Shown one piece after another: positions 19,638-37,346 of a DNA stretch of 64,000 bases. Below the pieces are notes generated by a model. It ran no database searches. It worked only from the letters and a program-made list of their open reading frames with translations, and was not told the DNA's origin. Positions within the stretch are counted from its first letter, which is position 1. Every line of letters begins with the position of its first letter. Source of the DNA: a virus; IMG/VR virus record IMGVR_UViG_3300044981_000350, positions 9,440 through 73,439 of that record; one strand, written 5' to 3'. The position numbers and the translations under genes were made by a program.

Positions 19638-20252
19638 ATGCCGATCACGGACGTCAAAGAGTTCGGGCAGTACATCCAGGACAGCGCCGCATCCGACATC
19701 GATGAGCTGCCGAAGTGCGGCACCGTTGGATGGTTCGGGCCCAACCAAGGCTTCATGTACTTCGAGGTGTTCAAGCCGAACCCCCTCGACGTTTACTCGA
19801 CCATCTTCGCGATCTTCCAAAGCGACGATACGATCCGCATCTATCAGCTTCCGGGCGCCAAACCCCCCAACACGCCCGACGACAAGTGGCGCATCCGCCC
19901 CCCTTCGCGTTGGACCCTAACCCGGGTGGCGCCCACCTACGTCTCTGAGGCTTTCCCGAGCATGGATGCCATCGCCGATGCTATCGTCGCGGAGTTCGAC
20001 GAGCTTGGTGAAGCCTCCGCCAGCGCCGACGTGGAACTGACGCGGGTGATCGAGTTCCTCGAAGCCGCGAGCCCCCTCACACCCGTGCGTGAGCTCGTCG
20101 AGCAGTTGGGCGATCTTCAACACCGCGAGATCGATGACGACGATGACGAGGAGCCGGAAACGGATCCCGCCGGTGCGGCCCCCACGGTTTCATCCCCACC
20201 AACCCCCGTGCCTCTTGCCCCCGTGCCCCCCTCCACAACGGAACCCCGATAA
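19638..20252 (+). CDS. hypothetical acidic/Pro-rich protein
   Basis: ORF with typical codon usage heading the structural block. Confidence 0.6.
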   Translation: MPITDVKEFGQYIQDSAASDIDELPKCGTVGWFGPNQGFMYFEVFKPNPLDVYSTIFAIFQSDDTIRIYQLPGAKPPNTPDDKWRIRPPSRWTLTRVAPTYVSEAFPSMDAIADAIVAEFDELGEASASADVELTRVIEFLEAASPLTPVRELVEQLGDLQHREIDDDDDEEPETDPAGAAPTVSSPPTPVPLAPVPPSTTEPR

Positions 20253-21104
20253 ATGACGTCGACGGCCACCCTTACGTACACCGCCTTCCTCGGTGGTGCG
20301 ACGGACACCGAGCTCGCGGCCCTCATAAGCGCGGTGCCGGTGCCCCCTTCGGTGTTGAACGCGCTCGGCCTGCGGGTCATCTCCGACAACACGCCGGTGG
20401 CTAACCCGGTCGTCCGGACGATTGTGCTCGCATTGAATCCCGCTAGCACCGCGACGGCCACCGCGGCCCTCGCGACCCAGAATTCCGGGAGCGCAGTTGG
20501 GGCCATCACGGTCACGAGCCCGGGTTCGGGGTATGTCCTGCCCCCCATCGTTTCCTTCACTGGAGGCCGCCCCGCCAACGTGGTGGTCGCAGGTTTCCCA
20601 ACGCTTTCCACCGATGTCAATCAGCTGGCGGTGTCGGCTAATAGCCCCGCAGCCGCCCAGGCCTATTTGAAGGTGGTAAGCACCAACATCGCGGCGGGCG
20701 GCTCGGGCTATTCCGCCGGCACCACGTTGAGCGTCGTGGGTGCGCAAGAGCAAGGCGCAACCCCAGCGGTACTCACCCCCACGATTGTGGGCGGCGTCAT
20801 CACCGCCGTGGCTATCACGAACGCAGGCGATGGCTACACCGGGATCCCGCAGGTGTTCGCGGTCGATCCGATGGGGACCGGCTCGGGCGCGGTCATCACG
20901 GCCGGCATGGGCGTTGGGAACATCGCGCTCTATCGTGGCGGCACCGGATACATTTCGGCACCGACGGTGGTGCTCACGCCGGCCTTTCAGGCCCTCTTCC
21001 CCCCCACGGGCGATCAGGCCTATCCCCTTCAGCAACTCATGACGTCGGCACTCGAGGTCGCGACCATGGGGCCGGTGTTTGCAAGCCCGGTGATGATCGC
21101 GTGA
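20253..21104 (+). CDS. putative virion protein with G(S/D/T)GY beta repeats
   Basis: Four ITVTSPGSGY..PP.V-type repeats. Confidence 0.55.
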   Translation: MTSTATLTYTAFLGGATDTELAALISAVPVPPSVLNALGLRVISDNTPVANPVVRTIVLALNPASTATATAALATQNSGSAVGAITVTSPGSGYVLPPIVSFTGGRPANVVVAGFPTLSTDVNQLAVSANSPAAAQAYLKVVSTNIAAGGSGYSAGTTLSVVGAQEQGATPAVLTPTIVGGVITAVAITNAGDGYTGIPQVFAVDPMGTGSGAVITAGMGVGNIALYRGGTGYISAPTVVLTPAFQALFPPTGDQAYPLQQLMTSALEVATMGPVFASPVMIA

Positions 21105-21264
21105 AGCCGGCCGACAATCACCCGTTCAAAACCCGCCGCCGCGCCATCGCGGGCCCGAACGTCGACGACGCGCCCGCGAAACACCCACGCCCCGATTGGA
21201 TGTCGAACAAGGATTTGCTCCCCAAGAAGCCGCCCGTGGGTCCGTCGACCCCGAAGGACTACCG

Positions 21265-22773
21265 ATGAGTGACGATTTGGATCTCGAAGACACGTCGGAA
21301 GAGGAGCCCGAGGAGACCCCCAAGCCCGCACCGCGCAAGTCGATGCGGCCAAAACGCGGGGTTGGAAACGCAGGTGCATTACCGGCGGCCGTCGGCGTAG
21401 CCCCCGGGGCCCCCGCGCCATTCCGCCGCCAAGCTTCCGAGGCCGATGCGGTGTGGAATGAGCTCGTCGCGTGGCTTCCTTCTGCGGGATTGACCCCGCG
21501 TGACATCGCGATCCAAGTGCGTCGCGTCGCGCCCCCCGCGCCCTCCGGTGAACCCCTCCCGATCGGTCGCGCGTTCGGCGGCGAGATGGTGAGCGGGAAC
21601 AACACCGAGCCCCCCGGCTCTGCGCTTGTGCAGTTCGTCATGCGCTACATGCACATGCCCCTCACCCAGACACCGGCCAGCTACGATCTCATGTTCATGC
21701 GCAAGGCCACCGGCGCGCAACTCGCGACGGGCCGCTTGGCATTGCCTTCGGCTCAAGATTGCCAGGCGATGTTGCAGGCCGGCGAGCAAGCCGGTTTGGG
21801 GGCCCCGGGCGCACCGCCACAACAGATGTGGCAACCGCCGCCGATGTATCCGCAGGGCCCGGGGTTACCGCAGGGGTACCCTTGGCCTTCACAAGGGACC
21901 GGCTATCCCCAGACCTACCCCTCGGCGCAATTCGGGCCGCCCCCACAACCCACTGCGCCGCAAGGATTCGCGGCCCCCGGAATGGATCCCGGGGTGATGA
22001 GCGAACTCGCCTCACTCCGCGGTGCGCTCGGTGAAGCACTCGCAGCGGCGCGCGAAGGCCGTCAACCGAATATCCCCGGCATGACGCCCCCCGCAACCCC
22101 TACGGGCACCGGCGGCCTTACCGATCTCGATGTCGATCGCATTGCCGCACGCGTCGCGACGATGATGGGCGCGGTTGCAAAAACAGTGGGGGCCCCGCCG
22201 GCACCTCCTCCGCCCGTCCCGACGGTTGCGGCGCCTCCCCCGGATTCGAGCCTCGAAGGGATGATGCGCACCGCGGTCGCCGGCATGACCAAGCGCATCT
22301 TCGACACCGCCCTCGGGAGTGTCGAAAAGAGCGTGACGCGATCCATCGGCATCGGCGGTCTGCCGGGTGGTTCAGAAGACGATGGGGATGAAGAGCGGCC
22401 GGCGCCCGCGGAGATCATTCCGCCGGAGAAGCCCGAAGACATGGTGCCGTGGAAGGTCGGCGACGTCGGGGCCAACTGGAGTAACGGAAGCCCCGTCAAG
22501 ATCGCGATGAACAAGGAGACGGGGAAATTGGATCCCATGGGCCTCGCCTTTGCGAACCCCGCGGTGGCCGAAAAGCTCATCGACGTCGCCAACGGTCTCG
22601 GGATGGCACTTCAGGATGCGATCAAAAACTTCGGGGCGAAACCCGGAGTCGGCGCACCGCCGCAGCCGAGCCCCCACGTGGTGCATTCGATCCCCGCCGG
22701 CGCCGTCGACGCTACGGTCGGGGCCTCAGATGATACGCCGCAAGCAATTCCCGACGGTTGGCAAGCGCCGTGA
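21265..22773 (+). CDS. Pro/Gln-rich hypothetical (structural or assembly) protein
   Basis: GAAGGA RBS before MSDDLD; contains AGLGA and GVGA motifs. Confidence 0.6.
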   Translation: MSDDLDLEDTSEEEPEETPKPAPRKSMRPKRGVGNAGALPAAVGVAPGAPAPFRRQASEADAVWNELVAWLPSAGLTPRDIAIQVRRVAPPAPSGEPLPIGRAFGGEMVSGNNTEPPGSALVQFVMRYMHMPLTQTPASYDLMFMRKATGAQLATGRLALPSAQDCQAMLQAGEQAGLGAPGAPPQQMWQPPPMYPQGPGLPQGYPWPSQGTGYPQTYPSAQFGPPPQPTAPQGFAAPGMDPGVMSELASLRGALGEALAAAREGRQPNIPGMTPPATPTGTGGLTDLDVDRIAARVATMMGAVAKTVGAPPAPPPPVPTVAAPPPDSSLEGMMRTAVAGMTKRIFDTALGSVEKSVTRSIGIGGLPGGSEDDGDEERPAPAEIIPPEKPEDMVPWKVGDVGANWSNGSPVKIAMNKETGKLDPMGLAFANPAVAEKLIDVANGLGMALQDAIKNFGAKPGVGAPPQPSPHVVHSIPAGAVDATVGASDDTPQAIPDGWQAP

Positions 22774-22889
22774 CTTGGTGCGATCTCGCCGAAATCGCCC
22801 TTTCGTTCGCGTCGGCGCCGGTTACGATGATGGCCCTCGCCTGCCTGGAGTGGTGGATCGAACGCAGCCGACCCGTGTGATAGGCTTCG

Positions 22890-24200
22890 GTGGTGGTGAC
22901 GCCCCATTGGCCGTCGTATCAAGGCACGGCCCGACGGGGCCTCGGGCTCGACGTGGGATCGCTCACGACGGTCGCCAGCAGCGCGGGCGCTGCGGCCAAC
23001 GCCGGAGACGTCTTCAACCCGGATGATCCAACGCAGGATCTACCGGGGCAGGCTACGGCTCAGTTCAACTCGTTGGTGAATTCGGCCCAGCCCGCGGTAG
23101 CTCTACAGCAACAGCTTCAAAGCGCGATCGGCTCCGCCACCGGCCAAGCCCAAGCGGCTTTCCAAGGGTATGCGGGCGAGATCCAGGCCATCGAGAGCTA
23201 CCCCGGGGCGGCGGAGGCGGCCGAAGGGATGATCACGGCCGCCGGTGGTGGTGTGCCGACGGACGCTCAGCTCCAAGGGGCCTTCACCGTCGCGGCAACC
23301 GCCGGTGCCGTGGCCCTCGGTGCGACCGCGACGGCCGCGGCGACTATCGTGGCGCCCCTCTGCGCGGTCGTATGGGGAGCCGGGTACGCGATTGGGGCCC
23401 TCGTCCAAAACATCCTCGGGATCACGAGCGGTAGCCCTGCACCATGCTCCGGCGGCGACACCGCGGTGTACGGAACATCTCCCGGAGATCCGAACTGGCA
23501 AACGTACATGGGGTTATCGGGCCCAGAGCTCGGCGCACCGTGGGGCCCCTACGCACCCCAGCAAGCAGCGAACATCCAAACGTTGAAGAGCCTCGCCGGT
23601 AACCCGACGTACGGCGCCCCTGCGAACTGGCCCTATTGGACCCCGTACACGCGAGGGGCCTTCGAGAACTGGGCCGGCGGGATCATCATCCACGCCGAAG
23701 AGCTTTGGATGAATTGCAAGAAGGTGCCGCCGGACAACACGGCGACCACGCTCTTGAAGGGTCTCGTAGGGGCGTGGAACGCGCAGTACCCCAATGCGCC
23801 GAAGCGTCAGATCAACATCGCCGGCCTGGGGCCGACACCATTGGATGGCCAGATCAAGACGCTGAGCAACACGTCGTTTCCAACAAGTTTTCGGCCCCCG
23901 CTCTATTGGCAATGGATGGCATGGCAGGGCGATCCCATTCAGTACCTCTTGACCCAGGTCTCGAATGAGCAAGGGGGGAATATCGCGATCACCGTCGCCG
24001 ACCCACCCCTGACGCCCCCCGCGGCCTCGGCCCCTACTACTTCCGCGGGTACCGCCGTCGCCAACGTCGCGGCCGGTACCGCCGTCGTCGGCGGGGCGGC
24101 ACTCACCGGGACCGCAGTGTATGCTTTTGCCAAGGGTCAAGCCGTCAGCACCGTCCTCAAGTCGGGCTTGCTCGCGATCAAGGGATGGTTCATTCGATGA
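22890..24200 (+). CDS. putative virion membrane protein
   Basis: N-terminal RRGLG, internal and C-terminal hydrophobic segments; exact GTG start uncertain. Confidence 0.65.
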   Translation: MVVTPHWPSYQGTARRGLGLDVGSLTTVASSAGAAANAGDVFNPDDPTQDLPGQATAQFNSLVNSAQPAVALQQQLQSAIGSATGQAQAAFQGYAGEIQAIESYPGAAEAAEGMITAAGGGVPTDAQLQGAFTVAATAGAVALGATATAAATIVAPLCAVVWGAGYAIGALVQNILGITSGSPAPCSGGDTAVYGTSPGDPNWQTYMGLSGPELGAPWGPYAPQQAANIQTLKSLAGNPTYGAPANWPYWTPYTRGAFENWAGGIIIHAEELWMNCKKVPPDNTATTLLKGLVGAWNAQYPNAPKRQINIAGLGPTPLDGQIKTLSNTSFPTSFRPPLYWQWMAWQGDPIQYLLTQVSNEQGGNIAITVADPPLTPPAASAPTTSAGTAVANVAAGTAVVGGAALTGTAVYAFAKGQAVSTVLKSGLLAIKGWFIR

Positions 24201-24640
24201 AACGCCGCCGCAGAGCTCGCGCGAACCCGACGGGGGCCCAATGGCTCCTCATCTCGGGTGCAATCGGCGCCGTCGGTGTGCTGGGCTACCTCGTCTACAA
24301 GGCGAACGCCCCCGCTGCATCGCTCCCCTCCGGTGCCGGCTCGACCTACAACGTTCAGCTCTCTTCGGGTTCTCTCCCGACCATCACGATGTCGCTCTCG
24401 AAGGGCGACCAGATGAGCCTCACGCCCCCCGCGGGCGGTACCCTCCCCACCGTGACCTTCAGCCCCACGAACATCGTCGGCCCCAACCCCAACGGGGCCT
24501 ACCTTGCCTACTCACCGATCGCGGTCGGTAGTACGACGTGCACGGTCAACTACACCGACACGACCGATACAACCAGCACGACGAGCACCGCCACCGGCAA
24601 CACCGAAACCGCAACCTTCACCGTGAACGTGACAGCTTGA
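24197..24640 (+). CDS. NP-leader membrane protein with Thr-rich beta ectodomain
   Basis: MKRRRRARANP + TM helix; ATGA coupling. Confidence 0.75.
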   Translation: MKRRRRARANPTGAQWLLISGAIGAVGVLGYLVYKANAPAASLPSGAGSTYNVQLSSGSLPTITMSLSKGDQMSLTPPAGGTLPTVTFSPTNIVGPNPNGAYLAYSPIAVGSTTCTVNYTDTTDTTSTTSTATGNTETATFTVNVTA

Positions 24641-24840
24641 TGGCTCGGCGTCGCGCGCGGGCGAACCCCGGAGTGGATGTGTGGCTCGCGCTTGGCGCAG
24701 GCGTCGCCTTGCTCGGTGCCGGCATCTACTTCTTCACCAGACCGGCAGCCACCACAAGCACTACCGGCACCGGCGCACTTCCCCCAAGCACCCACCGCGC
24801 GGCCATCCCGATGGTCTACACCGCCCGCCTCACTTCCTGA
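24640..24840 (+). CDS. small NP-leader membrane protein
   Basis: MARRRARANP + TM helix; TGATG coupling. Confidence 0.75.
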   Translation: MARRRARANPGVDVWLALGAGVALLGAGIYFFTRPAATTSTTGTGALPPSTHRAAIPMVYTARLTS

Positions 24841-24852
24841 TCGGAAACCCCC

Positions 24853-25299
24853 ATGGCCCGTCGACGCAAGCGCACCCGTAAGACTGAAGTTCGAGAGAAC
24901 GGCCCCGAGCTCCTCTGGATTCTCGCTGGGTTGGGCGTTCTCGGCGCTGGCACCGTGGTCTACCTCGCAACGCGGCCCCCGGCGACGACGACTCCCTCGT
25001 CGGCCGCGGTGCAGGCGGCGACGCAAGCGCGCCTCAACGCGATCGAGTCGAACATCGCTGATCTGGCCAATGAAGGAATCCCGGCGCCGGTGAGTGATAC
25101 GATCCCGAACAACGTCGCCACGGCTCTTTCGAACGGTGGCGGTAGTACGGGCCCCGTGAACACCGGGAACGCCGACGTCGACAACGCTGCGAACAGCGCG
25201 ATCAATAACGCTACGGGCCAAGCTACCGACGCGGTGAATAACGCGACGAGCAGCGCCGGCAACGCGGTGAACAGCGCGGCCTCTCAGCTCGGATTCTGA
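24853..25299 (+). CDS. NP-leader-variant membrane protein
   Basis: MARRRKRTRKTEVRENGP + TM; Asn/Ala-rich tail. Confidence 0.75.
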   Translation: MARRRKRTRKTEVRENGPELLWILAGLGVLGAGTVVYLATRPPATTTPSSAAVQAATQARLNAIESNIADLANEGIPAPVSDTIPNNVATALSNGGGSTGPVNTGNADVDNAANSAINNATGQATDAVNNATSSAGNAVNSAASQLGF

Positions 25300-25308
25300 T
25301 CTTTTCCG

Positions 25309-25920
25309 ATGGCGCGCGCTCGTGAAAACCCCATTGAGCTGGCCGTGTGGCTCATCGCTGCCCTCGCGGCCGCAGCGACAGGTACGGTTGTCTACGTAGC
25401 TGCGAAGAAGAGCGCATCGAACGCCGCGGCCACTGCGGCGACAACGGCCGCGAACAATGCGGTGCTCATCGGCCCCGCCATCACGAACCCCGAGGCCGGC
25501 GGCGCGGGAAACTCTGTCGCCGAAGCGGCCAACGCCGCCTTTGTGGCCGATCAGCAAGCCGCCGCCGCGGCCGCCGCCGCCAACGCCGCCCACCTCGCGA
25601 CGTTGACCGACACGACCTACCAGCTTTCATTGAGCGGGCAGGCCCCCTCAGCGACCGCCAGCTTTCTCCTCAAGGTCGGCGACACGATCCAGATCACGCC
25701 GAGTATGGCCGGGGACCCGCCCGTGGCTCGGGTGTGGACCTACAGCCCCGTGAGCTCTAGCAGCATCATCCAAGAGTTGGGCTCGGCCGATGGGGTGAGC
25801 GCCACCTTCAAAGCGACCGCCCCGGGCTCGGGGGTTCTCCTCGTGCAGAACGTCATGGCTGGCAACCAGAATGTCGTCTACATGACCTACACCGTCAACG
25901 TCGAGGTCATCGCAACGTAG
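25309..25920 (+). CDS. NP-leader membrane protein with Ig-like C-terminal domain
   Basis: MARARENP + TM; LKVGDTIQIT...TFKATAPGSG beta pattern. Confidence 0.75.
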   Translation: MARARENPIELAVWLIAALAAAATGTVVYVAAKKSASNAAATAATTAANNAVLIGPAITNPEAGGAGNSVAEAANAAFVADQQAAAAAAAANAAHLATLTDTTYQLSLSGQAPSATASFLLKVGDTIQITPSMAGDPPVARVWTYSPVSSSSIIQELGSADGVSATFKATAPGSGVLLVQNVMAGNQNVVYMTYTVNVEVIAT

Positions 25921-25996: not shown

Positions 25997-26266
25997 ATGG
26001 ACGTCAAGTCGGGCGCTCTGGTCGGTTTCGTGACGGCCCTCGGGGGTGTCGCCGGCCTCGTGTTCGGATACACGGCTGCGTCGCTGGTCGACGCCAAGAA
26101 GCCCGGTGAGGTCGCGGTAGGGTTCGGGGTGATCGGCGGCCTGGTGGCCTCCTTCGCGGCCGGCACCATCATCGCACCGGACGCAACTACGACGACCAGC
26201 ACGACCACAACGACCCCCACCCCGGCGGTGGGCTCTTCCGGGATTCCGGCGCAACTCAGCCGATAA
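25997..26266 (+). CDS. two-TM small membrane protein
   Basis: Two GxxxG-rich hydrophobic helices; TAAACT 6 nt before the ATG. Confidence 0.7.
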   Translation: MDVKSGALVGFVTALGGVAGLVFGYTAASLVDAKKPGEVAVGFGVIGGLVASFAAGTIIAPDATTTTSTTTTTPTPAVGSSGIPAQLSR

Positions 26267-26277: not shown

Positions 26278-27492
26278 GTGGCCGACTTCAACCCCGCACT
26301 TCCCGCGACGGCGACCCGGCGGCCCTACCCCGATGGGGCCCCGGGCATTCGCATGTCCCTTGAGGCCATGGCGCAGAAGATGCGCGAGGGTCGGTTGGAC
26401 CCCGGCGTGCGGGGATGGGCGATTCAGGCGTTGAAGGATGCGGGGATCGACGGGCGTGGAAACACGACGGTGCGCGCGCAGGCTTCGGCGCTCTTGGATG
26501 CATTGCGGGCGGTCACGACATACGCACCAGATCCCTACGGGGCCGAGTATATCCCTAGCGCCGCCGCCACGTTGTGCCTCAAGCCAAACCTCTGCGTCAA
26601 CGGCGAAGACTGCGACGGGTTGAGCGTTGCACTCGGAAGCCTGATGCTGTCGATTGGGATCCCGACCCAGATCGTCAAGCAGACCTTCGGGGGCGGCGCC
26701 CAAGAGCACGTCCTCATCGCGATCTACGACGGGACCGATTGGCTTTACGCTGATCCGTCGACGCGGTTGCCGCTCGGGGGCGCCGTGAGTGCAGCGCGCG
26801 AAGATTGGATCGATCCGATGGGTGCGGTGGGCCCTCTGCCGGAGGCGCAACCCGAGATCATCACCCTCGGAAAACCGCGCGGCCTCGGGAGCGTTCTCGG
26901 GTACCCGACGACTTCCGACGCGCACCAACTCCTCGACACGGCGATCTACAACGCCGGCCAGCTGAAGACCGCGTGGGATAACTGCAACAGCTGCACAGGC
27001 GCTTCGTCGACCACGTGCGGATGGCCTGACCCGGGTACGACTAACATTTCCGCAACCGGCCCCGGCGCCGATGCGTGGGCTGCGTGGCAAGCCGACTGCG
27101 GCAGTATGATCAACGACCTCAATACGCTCGTCGCGCAATGGAACGCGCAGAGCGCGACGGCTGCGCACTGGATGGATTCGTGGAGCTACGACCCGCTTTT
27201 TTGGGATCAGATCCGCGGTATCATCGAGCGTCAGATCGATCTCGATCAGCGCTTCCGAAACAGCGGCACTAACTGCGCGCTCCCGACTTACCCGAATGAG
27301 CCGCAGCCGATCGCTACGAACGACCCCGACCAGTGGGTTTACCAGGATGCGAACAGCGCGATCAAAGGGGTCGAGAGCGTTGCGGCCAATGCGGTGAAGC
27401 CGGTGTCGATCGCGATCGGCGGCATCGCAGTCGGCTTGATGCTCGCCGCCGGCGGTTACTTCCTTCTTGATCGACTCATCCCCCGGCGATGA
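26278..27492 (+). CDS. transglutaminase-like cysteine protease with C-terminal membrane anchor
   Basis: Catalytic triad pattern GEDCDG..VAL, EHVLIAI, WLYADPS; internal RGLG; C-terminal TM. Confidence 0.8.
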   Translation: MADFNPALPATATRRPYPDGAPGIRMSLEAMAQKMREGRLDPGVRGWAIQALKDAGIDGRGNTTVRAQASALLDALRAVTTYAPDPYGAEYIPSAAATLCLKPNLCVNGEDCDGLSVALGSLMLSIGIPTQIVKQTFGGGAQEHVLIAIYDGTDWLYADPSTRLPLGGAVSAAREDWIDPMGAVGPLPEAQPEIITLGKPRGLGSVLGYPTTSDAHQLLDTAIYNAGQLKTAWDNCNSCTGASSTTCGWPDPGTTNISATGPGADAWAAWQADCGSMINDLNTLVAQWNAQSATAAHWMDSWSYDPLFWDQIRGIIERQIDLDQRFRNSGTNCALPTYPNEPQPIATNDPDQWVYQDANSAIKGVESVAANAVKPVSIAIGGIAVGLMLAAGGYFLLDRLIPRR

Positions 27493-28142
27493 CCATGGGC
27501 TTGGTCGCTCCCGGTTCCTCCACGGCGTCGACCATCGCCCAATATTTTTTCTGGGGCGTCGTCGCCGCGGGGCTCGGCACCATCGGCTACTACATCTTCG
27601 CGCCGATCCCTCACGAGCGGGATAACCCTCGGCTCGGATCCGGCGGCCCGCGCGGTGGCTCGAAGAAACGCAAGCTGCCGATCGTGAAGGGCCGGAGCTG
27701 TCGGTTTGAAATGAAGGAAGGCCCCGATGTCACGTGCGCGGGGGCGATGCTCCACGACCCAACGGGCAAGGCATGGCCGGCGCGTTCCGTTTTGTGCGGG
27801 CCCATTCGGCGCAAACTTCGGAAGGCATCCGATGCGGAGCTCGAGGGGGCGGGCCGCCACTACTTCGGCGGGAGTTATCCCGCGCGCGTCGTTGAAATCG
27901 ATGCGCCCAACCGCAGCATGGAAGGTTGGCGGTACCTCGGCGAGGTTGAGCGGATCTACTACACGCGCGTGGGTCGAAAAAACGGCAATGTGCGGTTCCA
28001 ACATCCCTTCAACAAACCGAGCGCGCTCGCGACGGTGATGAAGGGCCGGGGCAGGGTGCGGCTATACCGTAAGGGCCGCTTCGTTCGGTTGGAGCTCCCG
28101 CGGGGTAGCATTCTTGACAGTAGAGGCTATGTTTGGCCCTGA
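27489..28142 (+). CDS. membrane-anchored basic protein (ERDNP after TM)
   Basis: N-terminal TM then ERDNP and a basic domain (LGEVERIYY...FQHPF). Confidence 0.65.
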   Translation: MTMGLVAPGSSTASTIAQYFFWGVVAAGLGTIGYYIFAPIPHERDNPRLGSGGPRGGSKKRKLPIVKGRSCRFEMKEGPDVTCAGAMLHDPTGKAWPARSVLCGPIRRKLRKASDAELEGAGRHYFGGSYPARVVEIDAPNRSMEGWRYLGEVERIYYTRVGRKNGNVRFQHPFNKPSALATVMKGRGRVRLYRKGRFVRLELPRGSILDSRGYVWP

Positions 28143-28375: not shown

Positions 28376-28632
28376 AGCTGCCGAGCGCGCCCTTGCCAAA
28401 TTTGATAGGCTGATGGAGCGTGGGCGATTACCTCGACAAGCTTGGCGCAAATCGGGCCGACGGACTAGAGCACGCCGCAACCGCCAAGTCGCACCGTAAG
28501 CTGCGCCGCAAGGGTACCTCCTTGACGACCACCCCGAAGCGCGCGAAACTCAGAGTCAAGCGAGTCGCTACGAAACCACCCGGGAAGGAAACGAGGGGCA
28601 CCACCAAAAAGACTCCGTCGGAGAAAGCGAAG

Positions 28633-29922
28633 ATGGCCAAGAAGAGCAAGCGCTCGAAGAAGCGTCGTTCGGCAGCGCAGCAAGCCGCGACGCGGAAGAT
28701 GCTTCGCGCCGCCAAGGCAAAGCGAGCCGGGAAAAGCCGCCGCGGCTCTTCGAAGCGAAAGGCCCGTAAGAGCGGCAAGCGCAAGAGCGCGAAGCGAGTC
28801 GCCGCGGGCAAAAAGGCCGCGCGGACCCGCAAGCGCCGCGCGTCCGTTGGAGCCTCCGAGCCGACGCGCAGCAAGCGGAAGAGCGGCAAACGTAGGGCCC
28901 GAAAGGTTCGTGCGGCTCACTCGATCAAGCTTCCCCGCGGCAAGCGCGGTGCAAAAAAGCGCGTCGGCGTCCACGTAAAAGTGGGCAAGAAACGCCGCTC
29001 GCGTGGATTCTCAGTTCCGCGGAAGACGAAGCGCGTCTACGTGATCGCAGCCGAGAAGAGCCGCCGACGTCGGAAGCGCAAGGCAAAGGCCAACCCGGCC
29101 AAGCGCCGCCGTCACTCGAGCGGTCGACGCAAGGGCGCGATGGAAAACCCGATGGACGGGGTGGAGCTCTTCATCGGAGCCATCACCGGCCTCGCGGGCT
29201 TCCTGACCGCCGACGTGCTCGACCGTTTCCTCGCGACTCACCCCCTAACGGTCTCTACGGCCGCCTCCGGGTCGACCGCAGCGACGTATACCGATACGCC
29301 CCCGACGTCGGGCGACTACCAAGGCCTCTTCAATGCGACCGCGATCTGCGCCCCGATGGACGCAACGCGGTGGCTCGCCGGCCTCGGTGTCGCAACCGTT
29401 CCGCTCGTCATCGCGCACTTCATCTCGGCCCCCAAGGGCCGAGCGGCGCTCCAGTTCTTCGGCTACGCGGCCGGGATCCGGGTCGTCGGCAAGGGCGTGA
29501 TCGACATGATCGCGCAGCTCACGCAGCCGACGCAGCTCGGCCAGCAGCTGTACGACGGTGAGATGCGCGCCGCGGCCCTCAAGGCCGGCAACGGCACGAT
29601 CGCCTCTGGCGTGAACCTCCCGAGCTCCGGCTTGGGTCGTGCCCGCCTCGGCACGGGCAAGCCCTGCGCCCCTTGCGCCACGAAGAAGATGGGCGCCGGT
29701 TACCCCAGCGCTCCCCGCGAAGTGACCGCGGTGACGAACAACAGCACCCCGACCACGCAGAACCAGCCCACGTCGACCCCGACGAATACGGCCCCCACGG
29801 CCTCGGCCCCGGCGGCCACCCCGCCGGCGCCTCCCGCGGCCGCGAACACCCTCACGGGCGCGCGCTTCATCAACGGGCTTCCTCGACGAAACCCGAATTG
29901 GGGTTATCAAGGAGACGAGTAA
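28633..29922 (+). CDS. protamine/histone-like core protein with membrane segments
   Basis: About 170 aa K/R-rich N-terminus, KANP and AMENP, hydrophobic helices, SSGLG, Pro/Thr tail with RRNP; ORF is open upstream to 28420. Confidence 0.7.
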   Translation: MAKKSKRSKKRRSAAQQAATRKMLRAAKAKRAGKSRRGSSKRKARKSGKRKSAKRVAAGKKAARTRKRRASVGASEPTRSKRKSGKRRARKVRAAHSIKLPRGKRGAKKRVGVHVKVGKKRRSRGFSVPRKTKRVYVIAAEKSRRRRKRKAKANPAKRRRHSSGRRKGAMENPMDGVELFIGAITGLAGFLTADVLDRFLATHPLTVSTAASGSTAATYTDTPPTSGDYQGLFNATAICAPMDATRWLAGLGVATVPLVIAHFISAPKGRAALQFFGYAAGIRVVGKGVIDMIAQLTQPTQLGQQLYDGEMRAAALKAGNGTIASGVNLPSSGLGRARLGTGKPCAPCATKKMGAGYPSAPREVTAVTNNSTPTTQNQPTSTPTNTAPTASAPAATPPAPPAAANTLTGARFINGLPRRNPNWGYQGDE

Positions 29923-30027: not shown

Positions 30028-31359
30028 ATGGCCTATCAATCGCGAATCGTGAATCAGCCGAAGAGCAAGACGCTCGTTCGGCCCCGTCCCGCAGACCGCT
30101 ACGTCGTGGGCGCCTCCGGCGTTCCCAATGAGGCGAAGATCAAGGCAGGCCTCGGCTCGGCCGGTCTCGGCTCGATCCTCGACATCATGAAGGCGTCTAG
30201 CGAGACGCCGGTGTGGAGCATGGACGTCATCGAGCAGGTCCGCTGGACGATGACCGGCCCGCAGACCGACGCGTCGGTTCAAGCGAACTTCGGCGCGGAG
30301 ATCGACCTCTTCGGCTCCGGCAAGTCGCCGCAAGGCATTGACTTCGTCGAGACGACGATGGCGCAGACGGGCCAGACGCAGACGCACTTCGTCGCCTGCT
30401 ACATCGGCTTCCACATGGAGCCGGAACCCCTCTGCTTTACGGCGCGCGGCAACGCGTCGACGCACCCCACGAGCGCGGTGGCTCAGCCCCCGTCCCCGGA
30501 CGTCTTCACGCAGAACGACCGCGCCAACGGCGCCCTCGGCACGGCCGTCGCGGCCGGCACCCAGACGTTCCTCCCGGCGGTCTACCGCCACGGCTGGTGG
30601 GCGAACTACGTTTGCTGGCACATGGCCCGCGCGTACAACCTCCGGTGGAAAATCGGCCAGCACGTCAACATCATGGACGAGCAGTTGCGCCACACGGCGT
30701 ACATGCCGCCCAGCGCGCAAGAGGGCTCGGCCTCCAACTCGCAGGTCGATGTGACCACGTTCGTCGCGAACCTCAACCAGCGCTACGACTCGCTCGGGTC
30801 CGCGCTCGACTTCATCCCGTCGAACTTCATCCGCATCGGTAGCGACGCGGTCGGCGGCGTGAACGTCGGTTTCTTCATGCCCTCGCGTGACTTCGAGATC
30901 GTCGATGCCACCTACGGCGGCATGGACCTCCGGAGCATGCTCAAGGGCAACAGCGAGATGCGGAAGCTCTGCGTCCCGTACGTCATCGCCCCGGGCGTGC
31001 CCATCGGCCTCTTCCTCCAGGAGTGCGACACAGTTCAGGGCGACACGATGCGCCAGTTCCTCTCCATCACGCAAGGCCTCGGCGGCGCAATCCCGCCCTC
31101 TCTGACGCCGGACGAGAACTACATCGCGGAGCCGACCGCCACGGGCACCAACGTCATGTTGGAGCGCACGCTGAGCGGCACGAACGTCGCGCAGCAAGTC
31201 GACGCCGAGCGCGTCGTCTTCCAGGGCGGCGATCTGAAGCTCACGCTTCCGATCCGCGGCTTCGAAGTGAGCGCCGACTGGTACAACCAGCTCTCTTCGT
31301 CCGCCGACATCCGCGCCGCGGTCTTCGACTGCGTCGGGATGCGCTTCGCGGCTCAGTGA
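30028..31359 (+). CDS. putative major capsid protein (non-HK97; jelly-roll suspected)
   Basis: GGAG RBS, strongly C/G-ending codons, N-terminal AGLGSAGLGS, beta-strand-like segments, central position in the structural block; fold is inferred. Confidence 0.5.
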   Translation: MAYQSRIVNQPKSKTLVRPRPADRYVVGASGVPNEAKIKAGLGSAGLGSILDIMKASSETPVWSMDVIEQVRWTMTGPQTDASVQANFGAEIDLFGSGKSPQGIDFVETTMAQTGQTQTHFVACYIGFHMEPEPLCFTARGNASTHPTSAVAQPPSPDVFTQNDRANGALGTAVAAGTQTFLPAVYRHGWWANYVCWHMARAYNLRWKIGQHVNIMDEQLRHTAYMPPSAQEGSASNSQVDVTTFVANLNQRYDSLGSALDFIPSNFIRIGSDAVGGVNVGFFMPSRDFEIVDATYGGMDLRSMLKGNSEMRKLCVPYVIAPGVPIGLFLQECDTVQGDTMRQFLSITQGLGGAIPPSLTPDENYIAEPTATGTNVMLERTLSGTNVAQQVDAERVVFQGGDLKLTLPIRGFEVSADWYNQLSSSADIRAAVFDCVGMRFAAQ

Positions 31360-31393: not shown

Positions 31394-32149
31394 ATGAGCA
31401 ATATCGTCGCATTCAGCGAGGAGCAGTTCAAAGCGCTCATCGCTCAGATCCGAACCCCCCATAGCAGCGGGTTGGGCGCGCCTCCGGGCAAGCCCTCTCG
31501 AGCCTTGGGGTTCGGATGCGGCGACAGCGACTTCGGCCCGCTCGCCACCGGCATCTACTCGATGCTGGCGGCGGGCTCGCCGCGTCTCGCTCTCGCCAAG
31601 GCGCGCGGCGTTCCGCTCGCCCCCTACATCATCAACGTGCGGGCGATCTTCCCGGACACGTCCACCACGTTGGTCCCCGACGTCGGCAGCGACGTGAAAA
31701 TTACGCAGGATACGCTCATCGACTCGCTCATCATCCGGATCCAAAACGAGTCGGACACGGCGAACCAGAACCAGTTTCAGTCGCTCTCTGACTTCTTCTA
31801 CGGGTACCAGAGTGCGATCGAAGCGACCCTCGATGTGCAGGGCGCGCCTCGCTATACGGTCACCGGCGATAAGTTCGTTCCCCTCAGCGTGCTGGGCGAT
31901 CCGAACAACGGCGTCGGGCACTGGCCCGGCGGGTGGGTGCTCACGTATCAGCAACAGCTCTTCATGAGCTTCCAGGCGAAGGTGCTCCTTCCCTACGCGC
32001 CGATCGAAGTGATCTGCTCGTTCCGCGGTTGGGTGCCGGTCACCCAAGCTTTCGTCAGCATGACGAACCGCGAGGCGATCACGCTCCTTCAATCGGAGTT
32101 CGGCATTCAACTGGACGATTCGTACATCAATCGAGTCGTTGCCCTCTGA
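31394..32149 (+). CDS. putative second capsid protein
   Basis: AGGAG RBS, N-terminal SSGLGA, beta-rich core (DTLIDSLIIRI...WVLTYQQQLFMSF...IEVICSFRG). Confidence 0.45.
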   Translation: MSNIVAFSEEQFKALIAQIRTPHSSGLGAPPGKPSRALGFGCGDSDFGPLATGIYSMLAAGSPRLALAKARGVPLAPYIINVRAIFPDTSTTLVPDVGSDVKITQDTLIDSLIIRIQNESDTANQNQFQSLSDFFYGYQSAIEATLDVQGAPRYTVTGDKFVPLSVLGDPNNGVGHWPGGWVLTYQQQLFMSFQAKVLLPYAPIEVICSFRGWVPVTQAFVSMTNREAITLLQSEFGIQLDDSYINRVVAL

Positions 32150-32161: not shown

Positions 32162-32971
32162 ATGGGTCGCATCGTCGAAATTGCTTCGAGTGGGCTCGAT
32201 GAATACCTCCAAGGCGTCGGCGGCGACCCTTGGGGGGGTTCATCTGCGCTCGGCTTGCGCGTTCCCTTTCTTGCGACGCCCGACAAGAACAACCGCTACC
32301 TCTTTCTCCTCGCGAGCTTCACGATCGGCGAGGGCGCGTCGGTAGTTATCAAGGGCTACCGACAATACGCATCCCTCGGGATCGCGCTCAGCGCAACGCG
32401 GTTCATCGAGCAAGAAATCACGAGCCCTGCGTTTCGACTCCCCGACGGGAACATCAGCTGGGCGATCCGAGGGTTGGGCCCGCCGAACGCCGGCGGCTAC
32501 CCAAAGCAGGGCCCTACCCCCGACGATCTGCGTTCGTTCAAGAAGAACTGGGCCGACGGCAGCTGCCTTCTCTATAACGACTACACGATCGCGGCGGGCA
32601 ACCAGATTTACACGCAGCTCGAGTCCTACGTGGCGCCGAACCTCGGTCGACCGTGGGGCACCGCGCTCCCCGCCGGGCAGCAAGGCAACTTCACCGACCT
32701 ACGCACGCCGTGGAAATCGAGCCGCGCGTGGGCGAGCCTCGATGTTCACGTCGATGGACCCACCACCATCGCGTTTTTCGCCAGCGTGCGGCAAAGCGCC
32801 GGCACCTACGCGGCGGCCGCCCCATCGGCGAGCTTCTCCGGGATGAACACCCCCGAGGAAGCTTTCATGGCGAACTTCACGACGGGCGGCGATGCGCCCA
32901 CGAAGCCAATCTACTGGCGCGTCGGGGGAAGTCTCATCGTGGAAGTGCAGAAAGGATTCACGGGTCCATGA
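32162..32971 (+). CDS. putative minor capsid or vertex protein
   Basis: Beta-rich soluble protein adjacent to the two capsid candidates. Confidence 0.4.
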   Translation: MGRIVEIASSGLDEYLQGVGGDPWGGSSALGLRVPFLATPDKNNRYLFLLASFTIGEGASVVIKGYRQYASLGIALSATRFIEQEITSPAFRLPDGNISWAIRGLGPPNAGGYPKQGPTPDDLRSFKKNWADGSCLLYNDYTIAAGNQIYTQLESYVAPNLGRPWGTALPAGQQGNFTDLRTPWKSSRAWASLDVHVDGPTTIAFFASVRQSAGTYAAAAPSASFSGMNTPEEAFMANFTTGGDAPTKPIYWRVGGSLIVEVQKGFTGP

Positions 32972-33349: not shown

Positions 33350-33751
33350 ATGGCTCGTCGAAACCCAGACCTGTCCACCCTCTGGTGGGCCCTCAGCGCC
33401 GCATCCCTCGCAGGCACCGTCGGCTACTACGTCGGCAAGGGCGTCAACCCGCTCAACCCGGCGTCGAACGTCACAACGAATATCGCCCTGACGAATGGCG
33501 GTTCCCTCACGGCGCCGGCCGGCGGTACCTGGATCCTGACCCTCCCGAGCGGCGCGACGTGGACGAACCTGACGGACACGAACAACGACATCACCTCGCC
33601 GCCCACGGGTACCGGCCCCGCTACGATTACCACCCCGGTTTCGGGTGTGACCTACACTGCAACGTGGAGCACGACCCCCACGACAGTGACCACCGGTCGA
33701 AACAATCGAAACAACCAGAATACGCAGACCGCCACGATCACGGCGCAATAA
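33350..33751 (+). CDS. NP-leader membrane protein, small beta ectodomain
   Basis: MARRNP + TM; LTLPSGATW motif. Confidence 0.75.
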   Translation: MARRNPDLSTLWWALSAASLAGTVGYYVGKGVNPLNPASNVTTNIALTNGGSLTAPAGGTWILTLPSGATWTNLTDTNNDITSPPTGTGPATITTPVSGVTYTATWSTTPTTVTTGRNNRNNQNTQTATITAQ

Positions 33752-33760: not shown

Positions 33761-34153
33761 ATGGCTCGACGAAAATCCCTTGCCCGCCGATCCCGATCGA
33801 GGGAAAACCCCGGCATCCCCCTCTGGATCTGGCTCGCCGGCGGGGCCCTCGCGGCGGGCGGCGTCGGCTACCTCATCTACACGAACACCGTGAACAGCCC
33901 GGCGCCGGCCCCGGGAGCTACGGCGGCCCCCGGGACGTCGAACATCACATTGGGTACGACCCCCGTCACCGTCCCCGGAGGCTTCGTTACCGTGAGTCTA
34001 CCCGTCAACGCCACGTGGGTTTCCCTCACCGGCGGCGGGGCCACGGCGGGATCTTCTGACCAGGTGACTATCAACCTCCCCAGCGGAAGCACCGCGACGG
34101 CCGTTTGGAACAACGGAACGGCCCAACAGACCACCACCATTACCGCTTCGTAG
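33761..34153 (+). CDS. NP-leader membrane protein, small beta ectodomain
   Basis: MARRKSLARRSRSRENP + TM; VSLPVNATW motif. Confidence 0.75.
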   Translation: MARRKSLARRSRSRENPGIPLWIWLAGGALAAGGVGYLIYTNTVNSPAPAPGATAAPGTSNITLGTTPVTVPGGFVTVSLPVNATWVSLTGGGATAGSSDQVTINLPSGSTATAVWNNGTAQQTTTITAS

Positions 34154-34403: not shown

Positions 34404-34412
34404 ACCCCGCCG

Positions 34413-34955
34413 ATGGGAATGTGGGATCAGGCGAGCGATTGCGAGACCTGCGGCGGCGGCCTCCGCGCCTGGGGCCATCTCGCGCCGCCCAATCCTACTG
34501 TTTCCCTAGATGAGGTGAGTCCGATGGATGTTGGAAATCGATGGGGCATTTTGACGGGTGCCGGGGCCGCACCGGATCGGCTCCGGCGCGTGCCGCGGGT
34601 CTTCGCGGGGCTCGGTGACGACAGCTCCGACGATAACCCGCCCGTCGACACCGACACTACGAGCGGGAGCATCGACAGCAGCGACAACTCCGACGCTGCG
34701 GTCAACCCGACGATTTCACCGGTCACCGCCAACCCCGGCGAGACCATCTCCGCCAGCCCGACGCCGACTGCGGTTTCAAACGCGAATGGCGGCGGCTCGA
34801 CATCAAGCGGCGGTGGCGGTTCCCCGAGTGTCTCCTCAAGTACCCCCGCGAGCACGAACTACACCCCGTGGATCATCGGGGGCGCGGTCGTCGGCGGGGC
34901 CGGCCTCCTCGGGTTCGCGCTCTGGCGGCGGCACCACAAGCTGCATCGGCGATGA
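34413..34955 (+). CDS. GLG-motif protein with C-terminal TM anchor
   Basis: FAGLGDD, Ser/Thr linker, TPWIIGGAVVGGAG..WRRHH; start uncertain. Confidence 0.65.
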   Translation: MGMWDQASDCETCGGGLRAWGHLAPPNPTVSLDEVSPMDVGNRWGILTGAGAAPDRLRRVPRVFAGLGDDSSDDNPPVDTDTTSGSIDSSDNSDAAVNPTISPVTANPGETISASPTPTAVSNANGGGSTSSGGGGSPSVSSSTPASTNYTPWIIGGAVVGGAGLLGFALWRRHHKLHRR

Positions 34956-35380
34956 AGCTCCTCGGCGCCGGTAATCGTGGCGCCGGGCTTGGGGATGCCT
35001 CGATCCTTCCGGCGGATCCACTCACCCAAGCGACTGCGGATCTTGTGGCGTGGCTCGTGGCGAGTCCGTGCACGCAAAACGCCGTCACGCAGGTAAGCGA
35101 TTTCCAAACGGCGTGGAACACTTCGACGCTCGGCGGAACGCTCACCGTCGACGGTAAATACGGGCCCCAAACACGCGGCGCGCTCCAAGCGGCGATGAAC
35201 GCGGCGGGGACGGGGAGCGCCCCCGCAGATTGCTTCACGTCCGCGAGTGCGGTGTGCCCTCAGGCTGCGGCCGCTGCGTCATTCGCACCCTGGATCATCG
35301 GCACCGCCGTGGTCGCTGGCGCTGGTGTTATTGCGTACACTTATTGGCAGCTCCACCACGCTCGCGGCGGCCGCCGCTGA
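34952..35380 (+). CDS. peptidoglycan-binding-domain protein with C-terminal TM anchor
   Basis: GAGLGD; VSDFQ...[15 protein letters not shown] (PG_binding_1-like); [14 protein letters not shown]. Confidence 0.7.
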
Positions 35381-35390
35381 GGATCCCCCG

Positions 35391-36068
35391 ATGCCCATTC
35401 CCTACACCCAACCGGGTTACTCGTACAGCCCCGTCGCAGCCGTTTCGCTCGGCCAAGTGGGGGCTACGGGATCGCACGGGGCGAGCGGGCCGACAGGCCC
35501 CGCGGGGGCCACTGGAGCCACCGGACCGACGGGCACTACCGGCGGAGCGGGAGCGACGGGAGCTACCGGGAGCGGAGCTACGGGAGCCACTGGAGCCGCC
35601 GGCGCGACAGGCCCCGGTGGTGGAGCCACGGGAGCTACCGGCGCAGGTGGTGCGGCCGGCGCTACGGGCGCCACCGGAGCGGCCAATACCGGCCATCATG
35701 CCTACAGCCAAAACGCGTCGGCGGTGAGTGCCTCTACGACGCCGACGTTCACGAGCGGGTCCTACACCTCGACTTCGGGGACGATCCTCATCATCGCTAC
35801 CATGACGGCTACGGGGCTTGGCGCGACGTTGGCGGCAAACGACGCCGTTGTCTTCAACCTCCTCCAAGACGGATCGATCATCGGAACTTCCCCGAGCATG
35901 AGCGTTGGCGCTGCGGGCCCCGGCCCGGTCGACGCGTCGGGCGCCCTCTCGATGATCCTCGCCGCCTCCGGAGCCCACACCTACGCGATCCAAGCGACGG
36001 TTTTGACCGGGAGCCACACCGCCACCGTTCAAATCGGCCAGGCCGCCATTTCCATCACCGACCTCTGA
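35391..36068 (+). CDS. collagen-like fibre/spike protein
   Basis: [10 protein letters not shown]-terminus, GAT/GPT triplets, C-terminal beta domain. Confidence 0.8.
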
Positions 36069-36092
36069 TTTTTTCCCTCCGAGAGAACCGCC

Positions 36093-36698
36093 ATGCCCAT
36101 TCCCTACACTCAGCCCGGTATTGATTACAGCGTCGCCGCGGTGGTCGCCGTAGGCGGCGGTGGAATGACCCGCGGTGCCACGGGCGCCACGGGGCCTTCC
36201 GGCACCATCGGGGCCACGGGCGCCACCGGAGCCGGAATCATCGGTGCGACAGGCGCCACCGGACCTACCGGCGTCGGCGCTACCGGCGCTACGGGAGCCA
36301 ACGGCTCCGGCATCGTTTCGACCACCACCACCGCTTCGGATGTCGTTCTAACGACGAGCCCCGCGGCTATCGTCACGAGCTCCGCGGTGTCGGTCACGAG
36401 CGGCCAAAAGGTGTTGGTCCTATTCTCGGCCAACGTCGCCAACACCGGCGAGGTGGTCACGAGCGGGGAAACACTCGTGAGTTTCGCGGCGCAGTTCGAT
36501 ACCACGACCGTTGACTCTTTCCAACAGTTGTTGGTGAACGCCACCGACAACGGAAATGCGACCGTGAGCTGGTCCTACGAGGTCACGGGCCTTTCGACGG
36601 GAAGCCACACGTTCCGGGCGCTCGGGTCGGTCGACGCCACTACGTGCACGCCCGAGGTCATCGCGGCTCGCATCACCACTGTTCTTCTTCCGGGCTAA
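36093..36698 (+). CDS. collagen-like fibre/spike protein
   Basis: [10 protein letters not shown]-terminus, GAT triplets, C-terminal beta domain. Confidence 0.8.
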   Translation: MPIPYTQPGIDYSVAAVVAVGGGGMTRGATGATGPSGTIGATGATGAGIIGATGATGPTGVGATGATGANGSGIVSTTTTASDVVLTTSPAAIVTSSAVSVTSGQKVLVLFSANVANTGEVVTSGETLVSFAAQFDTTTVDSFQQLLVNATDNGNATVSWSYEVTGLSTGSHTFRALGSVDATTCTPEVIAARITTVLLPG

Positions 36699-36701
36699 CC
36701 T

Positions 36702-37346
36702 ATGAGCGTCGGCCAGATCCTCAACCGCGGCTCACGGGTTGCCGTTCAACCGGGGATCCCCGCTGGCGCTACAGGCCCGAGCGGAGCCACGGGGCCGACC
36801 GGCGCCACGGGAAGCACGGGGCCCACTGGCTCCCCCGGAGCTACGGGTGCTACCGGGGCCACGGGTGTCGGAGCCACGGGCGCTACGGGGCCGGGTGGCG
36901 CGGGCACCGCCGGGGCTACCGGGGCTACCGGGGCCACGGGAGCTACGGGAACGGGAACAGCCGGCGCGACTGGCGCCACCGGACCGACCAGCGCCGGGGG
37001 GCCGGCCGTAGTCACCGCCTCTACACCAGAGGACACCAACCCCCACACGTTGACGACGCGCGCCATCACCTCCAATACGGAGCTCGTGGTCGAGGTTGTT
37101 TTTCTCGCGCGTGACCCCACCGACGGCAATGACGAGGGCGGCCGTATCGCCGGTACCTTCAAGAATACGGCGGGGACCGCAGTGCAAGAGGGGACGACGA
37201 CGAAGGTGTGGCAGCAGGCGAACGCCGGGGGCGTCGTTTGCACCTTCGGCGTGACCGGCGGGAGCTACGAGATCATCGGGACCGGCAACGGTGATGGCAC
37301 CACCGACTGGACTCTCTACATCTACGAGTACCCAAGCGAACTCTAA
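36702..37346 (+). CDS. collagen-like fibre/spike protein
   Basis: GAT/GPT triplets and a distinct C-terminal domain. Confidence 0.8.

Follow-up and report, generated by a model that had tools for sequence, protein, structure and literature searches.

The window analysed here, a 64,000-nucleotide stretch covering bases 9440-73439 of the single 73,439-base viral contig IMGVR_UViG_3300044981_000350, carries at positions 19638-37346 a block of genes that we read as encoding the virion of a new viral lineage: tailless, with an internal membrane and jelly-roll proteins, and without a recognisable packaging motor. We would give this reading a probability of roughly 0.6. The block comprises 22 open reading frames (ORFs), every one on the + strand with short gaps or overlaps between them and a third-position GC content (GC3) of 0.73-0.90, in keeping with the co-oriented structural block that an earlier reading of the bare nucleotide letters (the original prediction) had outlined. 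When the ten largest proteins of the block and its immediate upstream flank were searched against Pfam and PHROGs, nothing came up beyond a RadC/JAB domain, a weak match to Transglut_core, and repeats in the product of 20253 (genes are named by their first position in the window, or by the length of their product in amino acids, aa; Table 1).

The argument for a jelly-roll shell begins with the 443-aa protein. It is encoded by 30028, the best conserved gene, whose GC3 of 0.90 is unsurpassed in the window, and 215 homologs were found at E ≤ 0.001, many of them on contigs of 60-82 kb. The AlphaFold2 model, built with 66 homologs (predicted local distance difference test score, pLDDT, 79; predicted template modelling score 0.78), has ~19 strands and few helices. 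Foldseek returned poor matches to this model (template modelling score ~0.1), nearly all of them jelly-roll capsid proteins: papillomavirus L1, polyomavirus VP1 and an iridovirus capsid entry. When the top 1000 were rescored, the SGIV capsid reached 5.4 and PRD1 P3 5.3, the latter aligning end to end over 174 residues with a root-mean-square deviation of 6.3; a protein-atlas search gave a best score of 0.85, to viral clusters without names. No HK97 chain appears among the best 50 rows of each of three structure searches. Where the original prediction had put itself at the mercy of an HK97 fold for this gene, the model is a β-sandwich whose best neighbours are the jelly-roll capsids of internal-membrane viruses. 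As modelled, the protein would be a jelly-roll-type sandwich and not an HK97 fold, with scores that do not place it in any capsid family.

How the strands of this sandwich might be arranged is a further question. The order of strands and helices in the model is compatible with two barrels; single-barrel targets align over residues 64-414, which speaks against two. In a coevolution map of 198 homologs, strands pair across the two halves of the protein (181-188 with 395-400; 135-145 with 260-264 and with 291-296), and at least two strong contacts fall in 14 of 171 strand pairs, compared with ~5% of random blocks. The mean-field direct-coupling analysis behind this map is noisy, with an effective number of 134 among the 198 sequences, and its top pairs serve as a hint only. 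Going by these models, an interleaved or nested arrangement seems as likely as a tandem double barrel.

Directly downstream lies the gene for the 251-aa protein, with 192 homologs, some of them on contigs of 95-142 kb, and a model of pLDDT 85.6, in which residues 73-216 fold into what is predicted to be a clear and clean single jelly roll; to this extent the expected jelly-roll content is there. The third gene encodes a 269-aa protein whose atlas model is unusable (pLDDT 0.29). None of the three proteins has a hydrophobic segment, so that the description of three soluble, β-rich products holds for solubility in all three, and for β-richness in the models of 30028 and 31394 only. Prediction of a complex between the 443- and 251-aa proteins, with alignments supplied, returned a score of 0.00 and a mark of 0.32, a 'no answer' that counts neither way.

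The genome in which these genes sit is complete. The first and last 172 bases of the contig are identical except for 1 mismatch, in an overlap that falls within a repetitive collagen-like gene, and CheckV rates the IMG/VR virus record as 100% complete; the genome is therefore ~73.27 kb long with a circular map, and the earlier estimate of at least 64 kb can be replaced by this figure. The distances from the capsid gene to the contig ends differ widely in three near-complete relatives, which fits circular maps. As the window has a G+C content of 64%, genes were called by GC3, and the whole-genome set consists of 144 further ORFs of at least 75 aa with GC3 of at least 0.68, from which 10 ORFs antisense to PolA, VapE, two helicases and the exonuclease had been dropped and to which 14 had been added by hand. 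A scan of the window found no tRNA.

Against this complete gene set, the signatures by which tailed phages are usually recognised did not appear. Pfam assigned 15 families among the 144 ORFs, with no terminase, portal, capsid, tail tube, sheath or tape-measure family, and only a coiled-coil match in ten mid-size ORFs. PHROGs gave no packaging or tailed-phage hallmark for the 20 largest proteins not otherwise explained, and for the 144-ORF set the best 25 of 67 families were mostly collagen 'tail fiber' and HNH families, a search from which a weak single-member match could escape. Six-frame searches with hidden Markov models (HMMs) of Terminase_6N, TerL_ATPase, Phage_portal, Phage_capsid (PF05065), FtsK_SpoIIIE and Pox_A32 found each in 0 of five records, these being this genome and four relatives, all but one of the five at least 92% complete; as positive controls, the same models in that order detected 5, 3, 4, 4, 12 and 1 of 14 control genomes. 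No Walker A motif occurs in the unassigned ORFs, the only canonical one in a credible gene being that of the SF1 helicase, and a comparison of four near-complete genomes revealed no conserved ATPase in the structural block. Sequence profiles and the two folded proteins thus yielded neither HK97 capsid nor TerL nor portal. What had been noted for the block, that terminase, portal, HK97 capsid and tail genes are missing, extends by Pfam, PHROGs and HMMs to the complete genome, and for the six HMM families to four relatives. An A32/FtsK packaging ATPase, which had been expected, is missing as well: FtsK_SpoIIIE and Pox_A32 are at 0 of five, and no ORF matches such a Pfam family.

The case for a membrane comes from hydropathy. 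A hydrophobic segment (a 19-mer with a Kyte-Doolittle score of at least 1.5) is found in 13 of the 22 block proteins; 20253 and 35388 are probably β-rich false positives and the weak anchor of 33350 was missed, which would leave about 11-13 membrane-anchored proteins, many indeed, if fewer than the ~15 first claimed. At least six block proteins between 24185 and 34153, including 27489 and 28420, carry an Arg-rich R-x-N-P leader (RANP, RENP, RRNP, RDNP) directly before the transmembrane (TM) helix. The basic-x-NP motif occurs 9 times in the block against 2.9 in shuffles, with 0 of 500 shuffles reaching 9, and these leaders could serve in topology, sorting or processing.

Two of the anchored proteins are basic. 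In the 500-aa protein, which the original prediction had rightly described as protamine-like, residues 1-250 are 39% K+R and 4% D+E with a pI of 12.0, and two hydrophobic segments come after them; its gene is kept in all relatives and lies directly upstream of the capsid candidate in loci L002-L008. It is a candidate genome-condensing protein, anchored in the viral membrane. The 217-aa protein, 42-44% identical in three of three relatives, is a candidate membrane-tethered DNA-binding protein.

Just ahead of these lies the 404-aa protein, whose transglutaminase-like character, as first proposed, is suggested by a triad of Cys (CDG/CDD), His (QEH) and Asp (YADPS) that is invariant in five of five sequences, and by a weak, sub-cut-off match to Transglut_core over profile positions 10-108 of 108 (E 0.0065 for 26278; 2.6e-4 and 4.7e-4 for two homologs). 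We regard it as a candidate maturation protease or cross-linker. One homolog, L005:5020-7323, has an insertion of ~340 aa exactly at the conserved Cys, beginning with Cys and ending with Asn then Cys. The insertion matches LAGLIDADG_3 (E 1.2e-4, above cut-off) and Hint (E 0.0024), and is probably an intein that interrupts the gene at what may be the catalytic nucleophile; inteins tend to occupy functionally critical residues.

What might such a protease cut? The tripeptide GLG is present in 17 copies in 12 of the 22 block proteins, against 4.6 expected, a number reached in 0 of 500 shuffles, and in 8 copies in 66 proteins outside the block; the enrichment recurs in two relatives when the same gene caller is used. 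A looser form, G-[LIMVF]-G, placed just ahead of the folded core, is shared by 64 of the 66 homologs compared for the 443-aa protein and by 60 of 60 for the 251-aa protein. This pattern may reflect proteolytic cleavage at Gly-hydrophobic-Gly motifs.

These genes travel together. A profile search of 1.84 billion representatives recovered 180 clusters (50% identity) at E ≤ 0.001 and 85 at E ≤ 1e-30, and related contigs were identified in IMG/VR (five) and, as short contigs of metagenome-assembled genomes (MAGs), in GTDB (two). The protamine-TM, 443-, 251- and 269-aa genes follow one another in the same order in seven of seven related loci, as far as the contigs reach; for the transglutaminase-like and basic proteins upstream of this quartet, matches come from the five IMG/VR loci alone, as the MAG contigs, 2-4 kb long, end short of them. 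All six are core genes of four of four near-complete genomes (69-78 kb, 59-64% G+C), a core that also contains AAA_24, the SSB-like protein, UDG-PolA, the SF1 helicase, SNF2, the RadC C-terminus, the integrase, the glycosyltransferase, the GSGY-repeat protein, the Pro-rich protein and two small proteins, 39538-40134 (-) and 41038-41343. By tblastn, neither the 443- nor the 251-aa protein has a match in 50,697 GenBank phage records. The family has no cultured relative, and no paper describing it was found in the literature searched, outside of which lay any supplementary contig lists; within these bounds, the suggestion of an undescribed lineage stands.

How could such a particle be put together? 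We propose that the 443- and 251-aa proteins, and probably the 269-aa protein, would form an outer icosahedral shell, beneath which around a dozen small single-pass proteins would sit in a lipid membrane, the Arg-rich N-termini of the anchored proteins facing the DNA as the positive-inside rule would have it. The protamine-TM 500-aa and basic 217-aa proteins would condense the circular genome and tie it to this membrane. The genome would then be enclosed during particle assembly, not pumped into a preformed head, which would explain the missing terminase, portal and FtsK/A32-type ATPase. The membrane-anchored Cys-His-Asp protein would mature or cross-link particle proteins and may cut at the Gly-hydrophobic-Gly motifs, and collagen-like trimers would serve as spikes or fibres for host recognition.

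Several observations weigh against this picture. The particle is known from genes alone, an icosahedral shell over an internal membrane being what gene content and predicted folds suggest, and the matches to the fold of the main shell candidate are weak: this is the main uncertainty. The 443-aa fold scores below the tool's typical value for unmatched models, and its family profile drew a single irrelevant row (E 0.31) from PDB sequences. For the 251-aa model, nucleoplasmin-like domains (7.3-7.4) and PHM (7.0-7.3) tie with the viral matches, so that its fold by itself is no proof of a capsid role, and hhalign detects no relation between the two families (probability 0.2). The Transglut_core scores in three of five sequences (17.2, 21.7 and 20.8 bits) are all below the 23-bit cut-off, with no match in the other two, and strict GLG had to be rejected as a family-wide signal, there being 0 motifs in the block of relative G001. 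Lastly, a packaging enzyme of an unknown family may have escaped the HMMs, and a conserved SNF2 translocase and SF1 helicase are present.

Of the other explanations, the one that fares best is an enveloped or pleomorphic virus, in which the anchored proteins would make up an external envelope with a core of protamine and DNA inside it, the jelly rolls being matrix, spike or lectin-like proteins. We consider this unlikely. Conservation and codon bias are both strongest in the three soluble proteins, as would be expected of abundant shell subunits, and the top matches of both structural searches are capsid proteins from icosahedral viruses with an internal membrane. In addition, the 443- and 251-aa models have N-terminal arms before the barrel, and capsid jelly rolls often carry such arms.

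Less probable again is a true member of the PRD1-adenovirus lineage (Varidnaviria), with the 443-aa protein as a diverged double jelly roll, the 251-aa protein as its penton, and an ATPase too diverged to be seen or replaced by another enzyme. Tectiviridae, to which PRD1 belongs, and the bacterial double jelly-roll viruses have genomes of 10-20 kb. Tectiviridae and Bamfordvirae also possess an FtsK/HerA-type packaging ATPase, whereas Pfam and HMMs found none here, the A32-like enzyme that marks Varidnaviria/Bamfordvirae included (FtsK_SpoIIIE and Pox_A32, 0 of five records), and the coevolution contacts argue against the simple tandem of a Bamfordvirae double jelly roll. Could Helvetiavirae be closer? 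There the packaging ATPase is conserved and adjoins the capsid genes; no such ATPase is seen here, and the 443- and 251-aa proteins share no profile similarity. Genomes of Helvetiavirae (Sphaerolipoviridae, Simuloviridae and Matshushitaviridae, with HHIV-2, HCIV-1, SH1 and P23-77) measure 16-30 kb. Overall, PRD1-type and P23-77/SH1-type viruses follow the same tailless membrane plan, but have a packaging ATPase and genomes three to seven times smaller. A term search of a metagenomic survey of double jelly-roll viruses turned up no collagen, myxobacterial or family A polymerase group (PMC5894146).

A tailed phage so diverged that its HK97 capsid, portal, terminase and tail genes all escape the profiles strikes us as very improbable. 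Its replication families are indeed common in tailed phages, which agrees with the tailed-phage-style PolA block noted earlier, up to a point: the polymerase itself shares no more than 23-29% identity with those of GenBank phages. The collagen-like proteins match 'tail fiber' PHROGs, and the repeat regions of 20253 match 'head closure Hc2', 'virion structural protein' and 'baseplate wedge' (best E 6.4e-10); these 'tail' matches are confined to collagen or repeat regions, and 20253 is probably a surface repeat-domain virion protein. Set against this possibility are the six hallmark families with no hit in any record, a best conserved structural protein that is all-β with no HK97 chain in its structure searches, and the fact that all ORFs of at least 300 aa are accounted for, low-complexity or membrane proteins, with no Walker A in any. 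That the block is no virus at all, and instead the cell-surface or vesicle structure of a plasmid-like or integrative element, is barely credible: it would suit the lack of a virion hallmark recognisable by sequence and the many membrane and collagen-like surface proteins, but the Pfam scan detected neither conjugation nor partition families, a search of 72,556 plasmids did not find the capsid candidate, the genomes are uniformly 69-78 kb with circular maps and CheckV-complete virus records, and there are a lysozyme, an integrase and jelly rolls with viral-capsid-led matches.

Returning to a tailless, internal-membrane virus, the nearest design in print is SPV1 (Portogloboviridae), which has a single jelly-roll shell, a lipid layer, a nucleoprotein core and a circular genome, with no ATPase among its assigned functions (PMC8459092). 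SPV1 is a 20-kb virus of hyperthermophilic archaea without polymerase or integrase (PMC8459092). Its capsid chains (PDB 6oj0) have 178-180 residues, against 443 in the shell candidate here; the two viruses share no sequence similarity, and their structural likeness is that of a generic jelly roll. Unlike SPV1, the present virus has 73.3 kb, its own PolA replisome and a basic protein that is itself membrane-anchored. Portogloboviridae are defined by a ~20-kb genome and an archaeal host, whereas here the genome is 73.3 kb and related contigs are binned with bacterial MAGs. A second, looser analogy is with adenoviruses, in which arginine-rich core proteins (protein VII) condense the genome and a cysteine protease (adenain) cuts at Gly-containing motifs; the protamine-like protein, the Cys-His-Asp enzyme and the Gly-hydrophobic-Gly motif could be counterparts, with the difference that the enzyme here is transglutaminase-like, not adenain-like. 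Adenoviruses do have a packaging ATPase. We would file the virus under none of Portogloboviridae, Bamfordvirae and Helvetiavirae, and by analogy it may work like them.

A more far-reaching version of this proposal, which we advance tentatively and with more doubt than belief, would see in the family an undescribed high-rank lineage of bacterial double-stranded DNA viruses, possibly outside existing realms. In it, a circular genome of 70-80 kb would be co-condensed with a membrane-anchored protamine-like protein in a lipid vesicle without a packaging NTPase, coated with a new interleaved jelly roll and a single jelly roll, and matured by a transglutaminase-fold protease cutting at Gly-hydrophobic-Gly: a bacterial counterpart of SPV1 at nearly four times its genome size.

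Table 1. Features of the window, with positions counted from its first base unless marked as genome positions.
Position	Strand	Feature	Basis
30028..31359	+	443-aa candidate major capsid protein, jelly-roll-type β-sandwich	AlphaFold2 model
31394..32149	+	251-aa predicted single jelly roll (core 73-216) with N-terminal helical arm; candidate penton or second capsid protein	predicted structure
32162..32971	+	269-aa soluble protein, third of conserved trio	42-60% identity, syntenic in all relatives; no Pfam/PHROG match
28420..29922	+	500-aa protamine-like protein, then hydrophobic helices and Thr/Pro-rich tail	composition, hydropathy; no family match
27489..28142	+	217-aa protein: N-terminal TM helix, RDNP motif, basic domain 61-217 (21% K+R, pI 10.7)	no family match
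26278..27492	+	404-aa transglutaminase-like (papain-fold) Cys-His-Asp protein with C-terminal TM anchor	weak Transglut_core match and triad
19638..20252	+	first block gene, 204 aa, C-terminus acidic and Pro-rich	no Pfam/PHROG match
20253..21104	+	283-aa protein, four GSGY/GDGY/GTGY-type repeats	repeats seen in sequence; kept in 3/3 relatives
21196..22773	+	525-aa Pro/Gly/Ala-rich protein, mostly low-complexity	no family match, no Walker A
22890..24200	+	436-aa membrane protein: central hydrophobic pair and hydrophobic C-terminus	hydropathy; no Pfam/PHROG match
24185..25920	+	three small N-anchored proteins: 24185-24640, 24853-25299, 25309-25920	sequence, hydropathy
25997..26266	+	89-aa protein, two TM segments	hydropathy; kept in L004, L008, L005
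33350..34153	+	two small N-anchored proteins, 33350-33751 and 33761-34153, with RRNP and RENP leaders	
34413..35380	+	two C-anchored proteins, 34413-34955 and 34868-35380, both having a G-L-G leader	
35388..37346	+	three collagen-like proteins, 35388-36068, 36093-36698 and 36702-37346: N-terminal Gly-X-Y stalk, C-terminal β-rich head	
8857-11463		868-aa fusion of a UDG-superfamily domain with 3'-5' exonuclease and family A polymerase	conserved in 3/3 relatives
18080-19552		490-aa protein just upstream of block	RadC-like JAB only in residues 367-485
45424..46542	-	tyrosine integrase	Phage_integrase E 8e-19; kept in 3/3 relatives
59882..60748	-	GH25 lysozyme, candidate lysis or entry enzyme	Glyco_hydro_25 E 6.5e-29
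from 61972	+	four large collagen-like fibre genes in a row: window 61972-63504; 63470 across junction to genome 2191; genome 2219-3754; genome 3774-5609	

The remaining block proteins fill out this picture at various degrees of conservation. The 19638 product is weakly conserved (38% identity in relative G003, 25% in G001); that of 21196 is partially conserved in relatives and, at a guess, could be a scaffold or a membrane-to-shell linker. The trio at 24185-25920 shows, from N to C, an Arg-rich leader, (R)xNP or NGP, one TM helix and a Thr/Ser/Ala-rich domain. ORF 34868 probably starts at 34952 and has homologs in L004, L008 and L005, and ORF 35247 probably starts at 35388. The three collagen-like proteins at the end of the block contain Gly-X-Y runs of 14+5+6 (35388-36068), 7 (36093-36698) and 12+7 (36702-37346) triplets, and two of them share the start MPIPYTQPG; the predicted collagen stalks are thus present, and the proteins are candidate trimeric spikes, a role that composition suggests. 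Pfam Collagen matches 4 of the 144 scanned ORFs. Among the large fibre genes (Collagen E 3.4e-26; collagen-type 'tail fiber' PHROGs), the one spanning the junction encodes 849 aa with a run of 46 Gly-X-Y triplets.

Elsewhere, the genome encodes replication and repair proteins (VapE primase-helicase, AAA_24, SSB-like, UDG-PolA fusion, SF1 helicase, Dam, dNMP kinase, SNF2, exonuclease and HNH endonucleases) together with a glycosyltransferase, a metallopeptidase, a Cpn10 homolog, the GH25 lysozyme, the large collagen-like fibres and the tyrosine integrase, by which the virus is marked as temperate. Two proteins were considered as hidden terminases and set aside. In the 490-aa RadC protein the N-terminal 366 aa match nothing, only the C-terminus is kept in relatives, and that part matches RadC only, with no Walker A; the exonuclease at 56530-57840 matches phrog_284 'exonuclease' (9.8e-30), with no PDB sequence match and no Walker A. 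An HNH endonuclease with a NUMOD4 motif lies at 14140-14652, between the SF1 helicase and Dam genes, and a second HNH gene elsewhere in the genome. The small proteins 39538-40134 (-) and 41038-41343 (+) are found in all three near-complete relatives, the former adjoining the conserved glycosyltransferase gene at 38348-39685 (-). In a pooled Pfam scan, one ORF matched Cpn10 (GroES; E 1.3e-14) and another a KGG stress-repeat (E 1.1e-9).

As to the host, a Polyangiaceae MAG contributes two homologs, both on short contigs, and a Chloroflexota MAG a single one. When the capsid profile was run against 301 sampled genomes of each of the two phyla, only the seed genome was recovered (1 of 301 each). 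The 'probable myxobacterial' host of the original prediction comes down to one MAG bin and is not established. The second capsid homolog of the Polyangiaceae MAG, G005:C825:11047-12153 (L010), is far more distant (E 4.2e-68) and lies on another contig; two capsid homologs in one bin suggest two different viruses of the family.

The known bacterial viruses of more than ~20 kb are almost all tailed, with a preformed head filled by a terminase motor. The family described here, widespread and represented on dozens of 60-82 kb contigs, has genomes of 70-80 kb in which a PolA replisome of its own and an integrase are combined with jelly-roll shell candidates and many membrane proteins, and no packaging motor was found in it. 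A membrane and jelly-roll shell around protamine-condensed DNA is a design so far known only in much smaller viruses; if our reading is true, the tailless membrane-containing architecture reaches a new size class in bacteria, and a capsid protein family unnamed in current virus-detection marker sets is added. Indeed, classifiers based on hallmark genes can call such genomes viral without saying which kind of virus they are. If true, the family would also offer a bacterial test case for the motor-free enclosure of a large double-stranded DNA genome, the same question being open for adenoviruses and SPV1.

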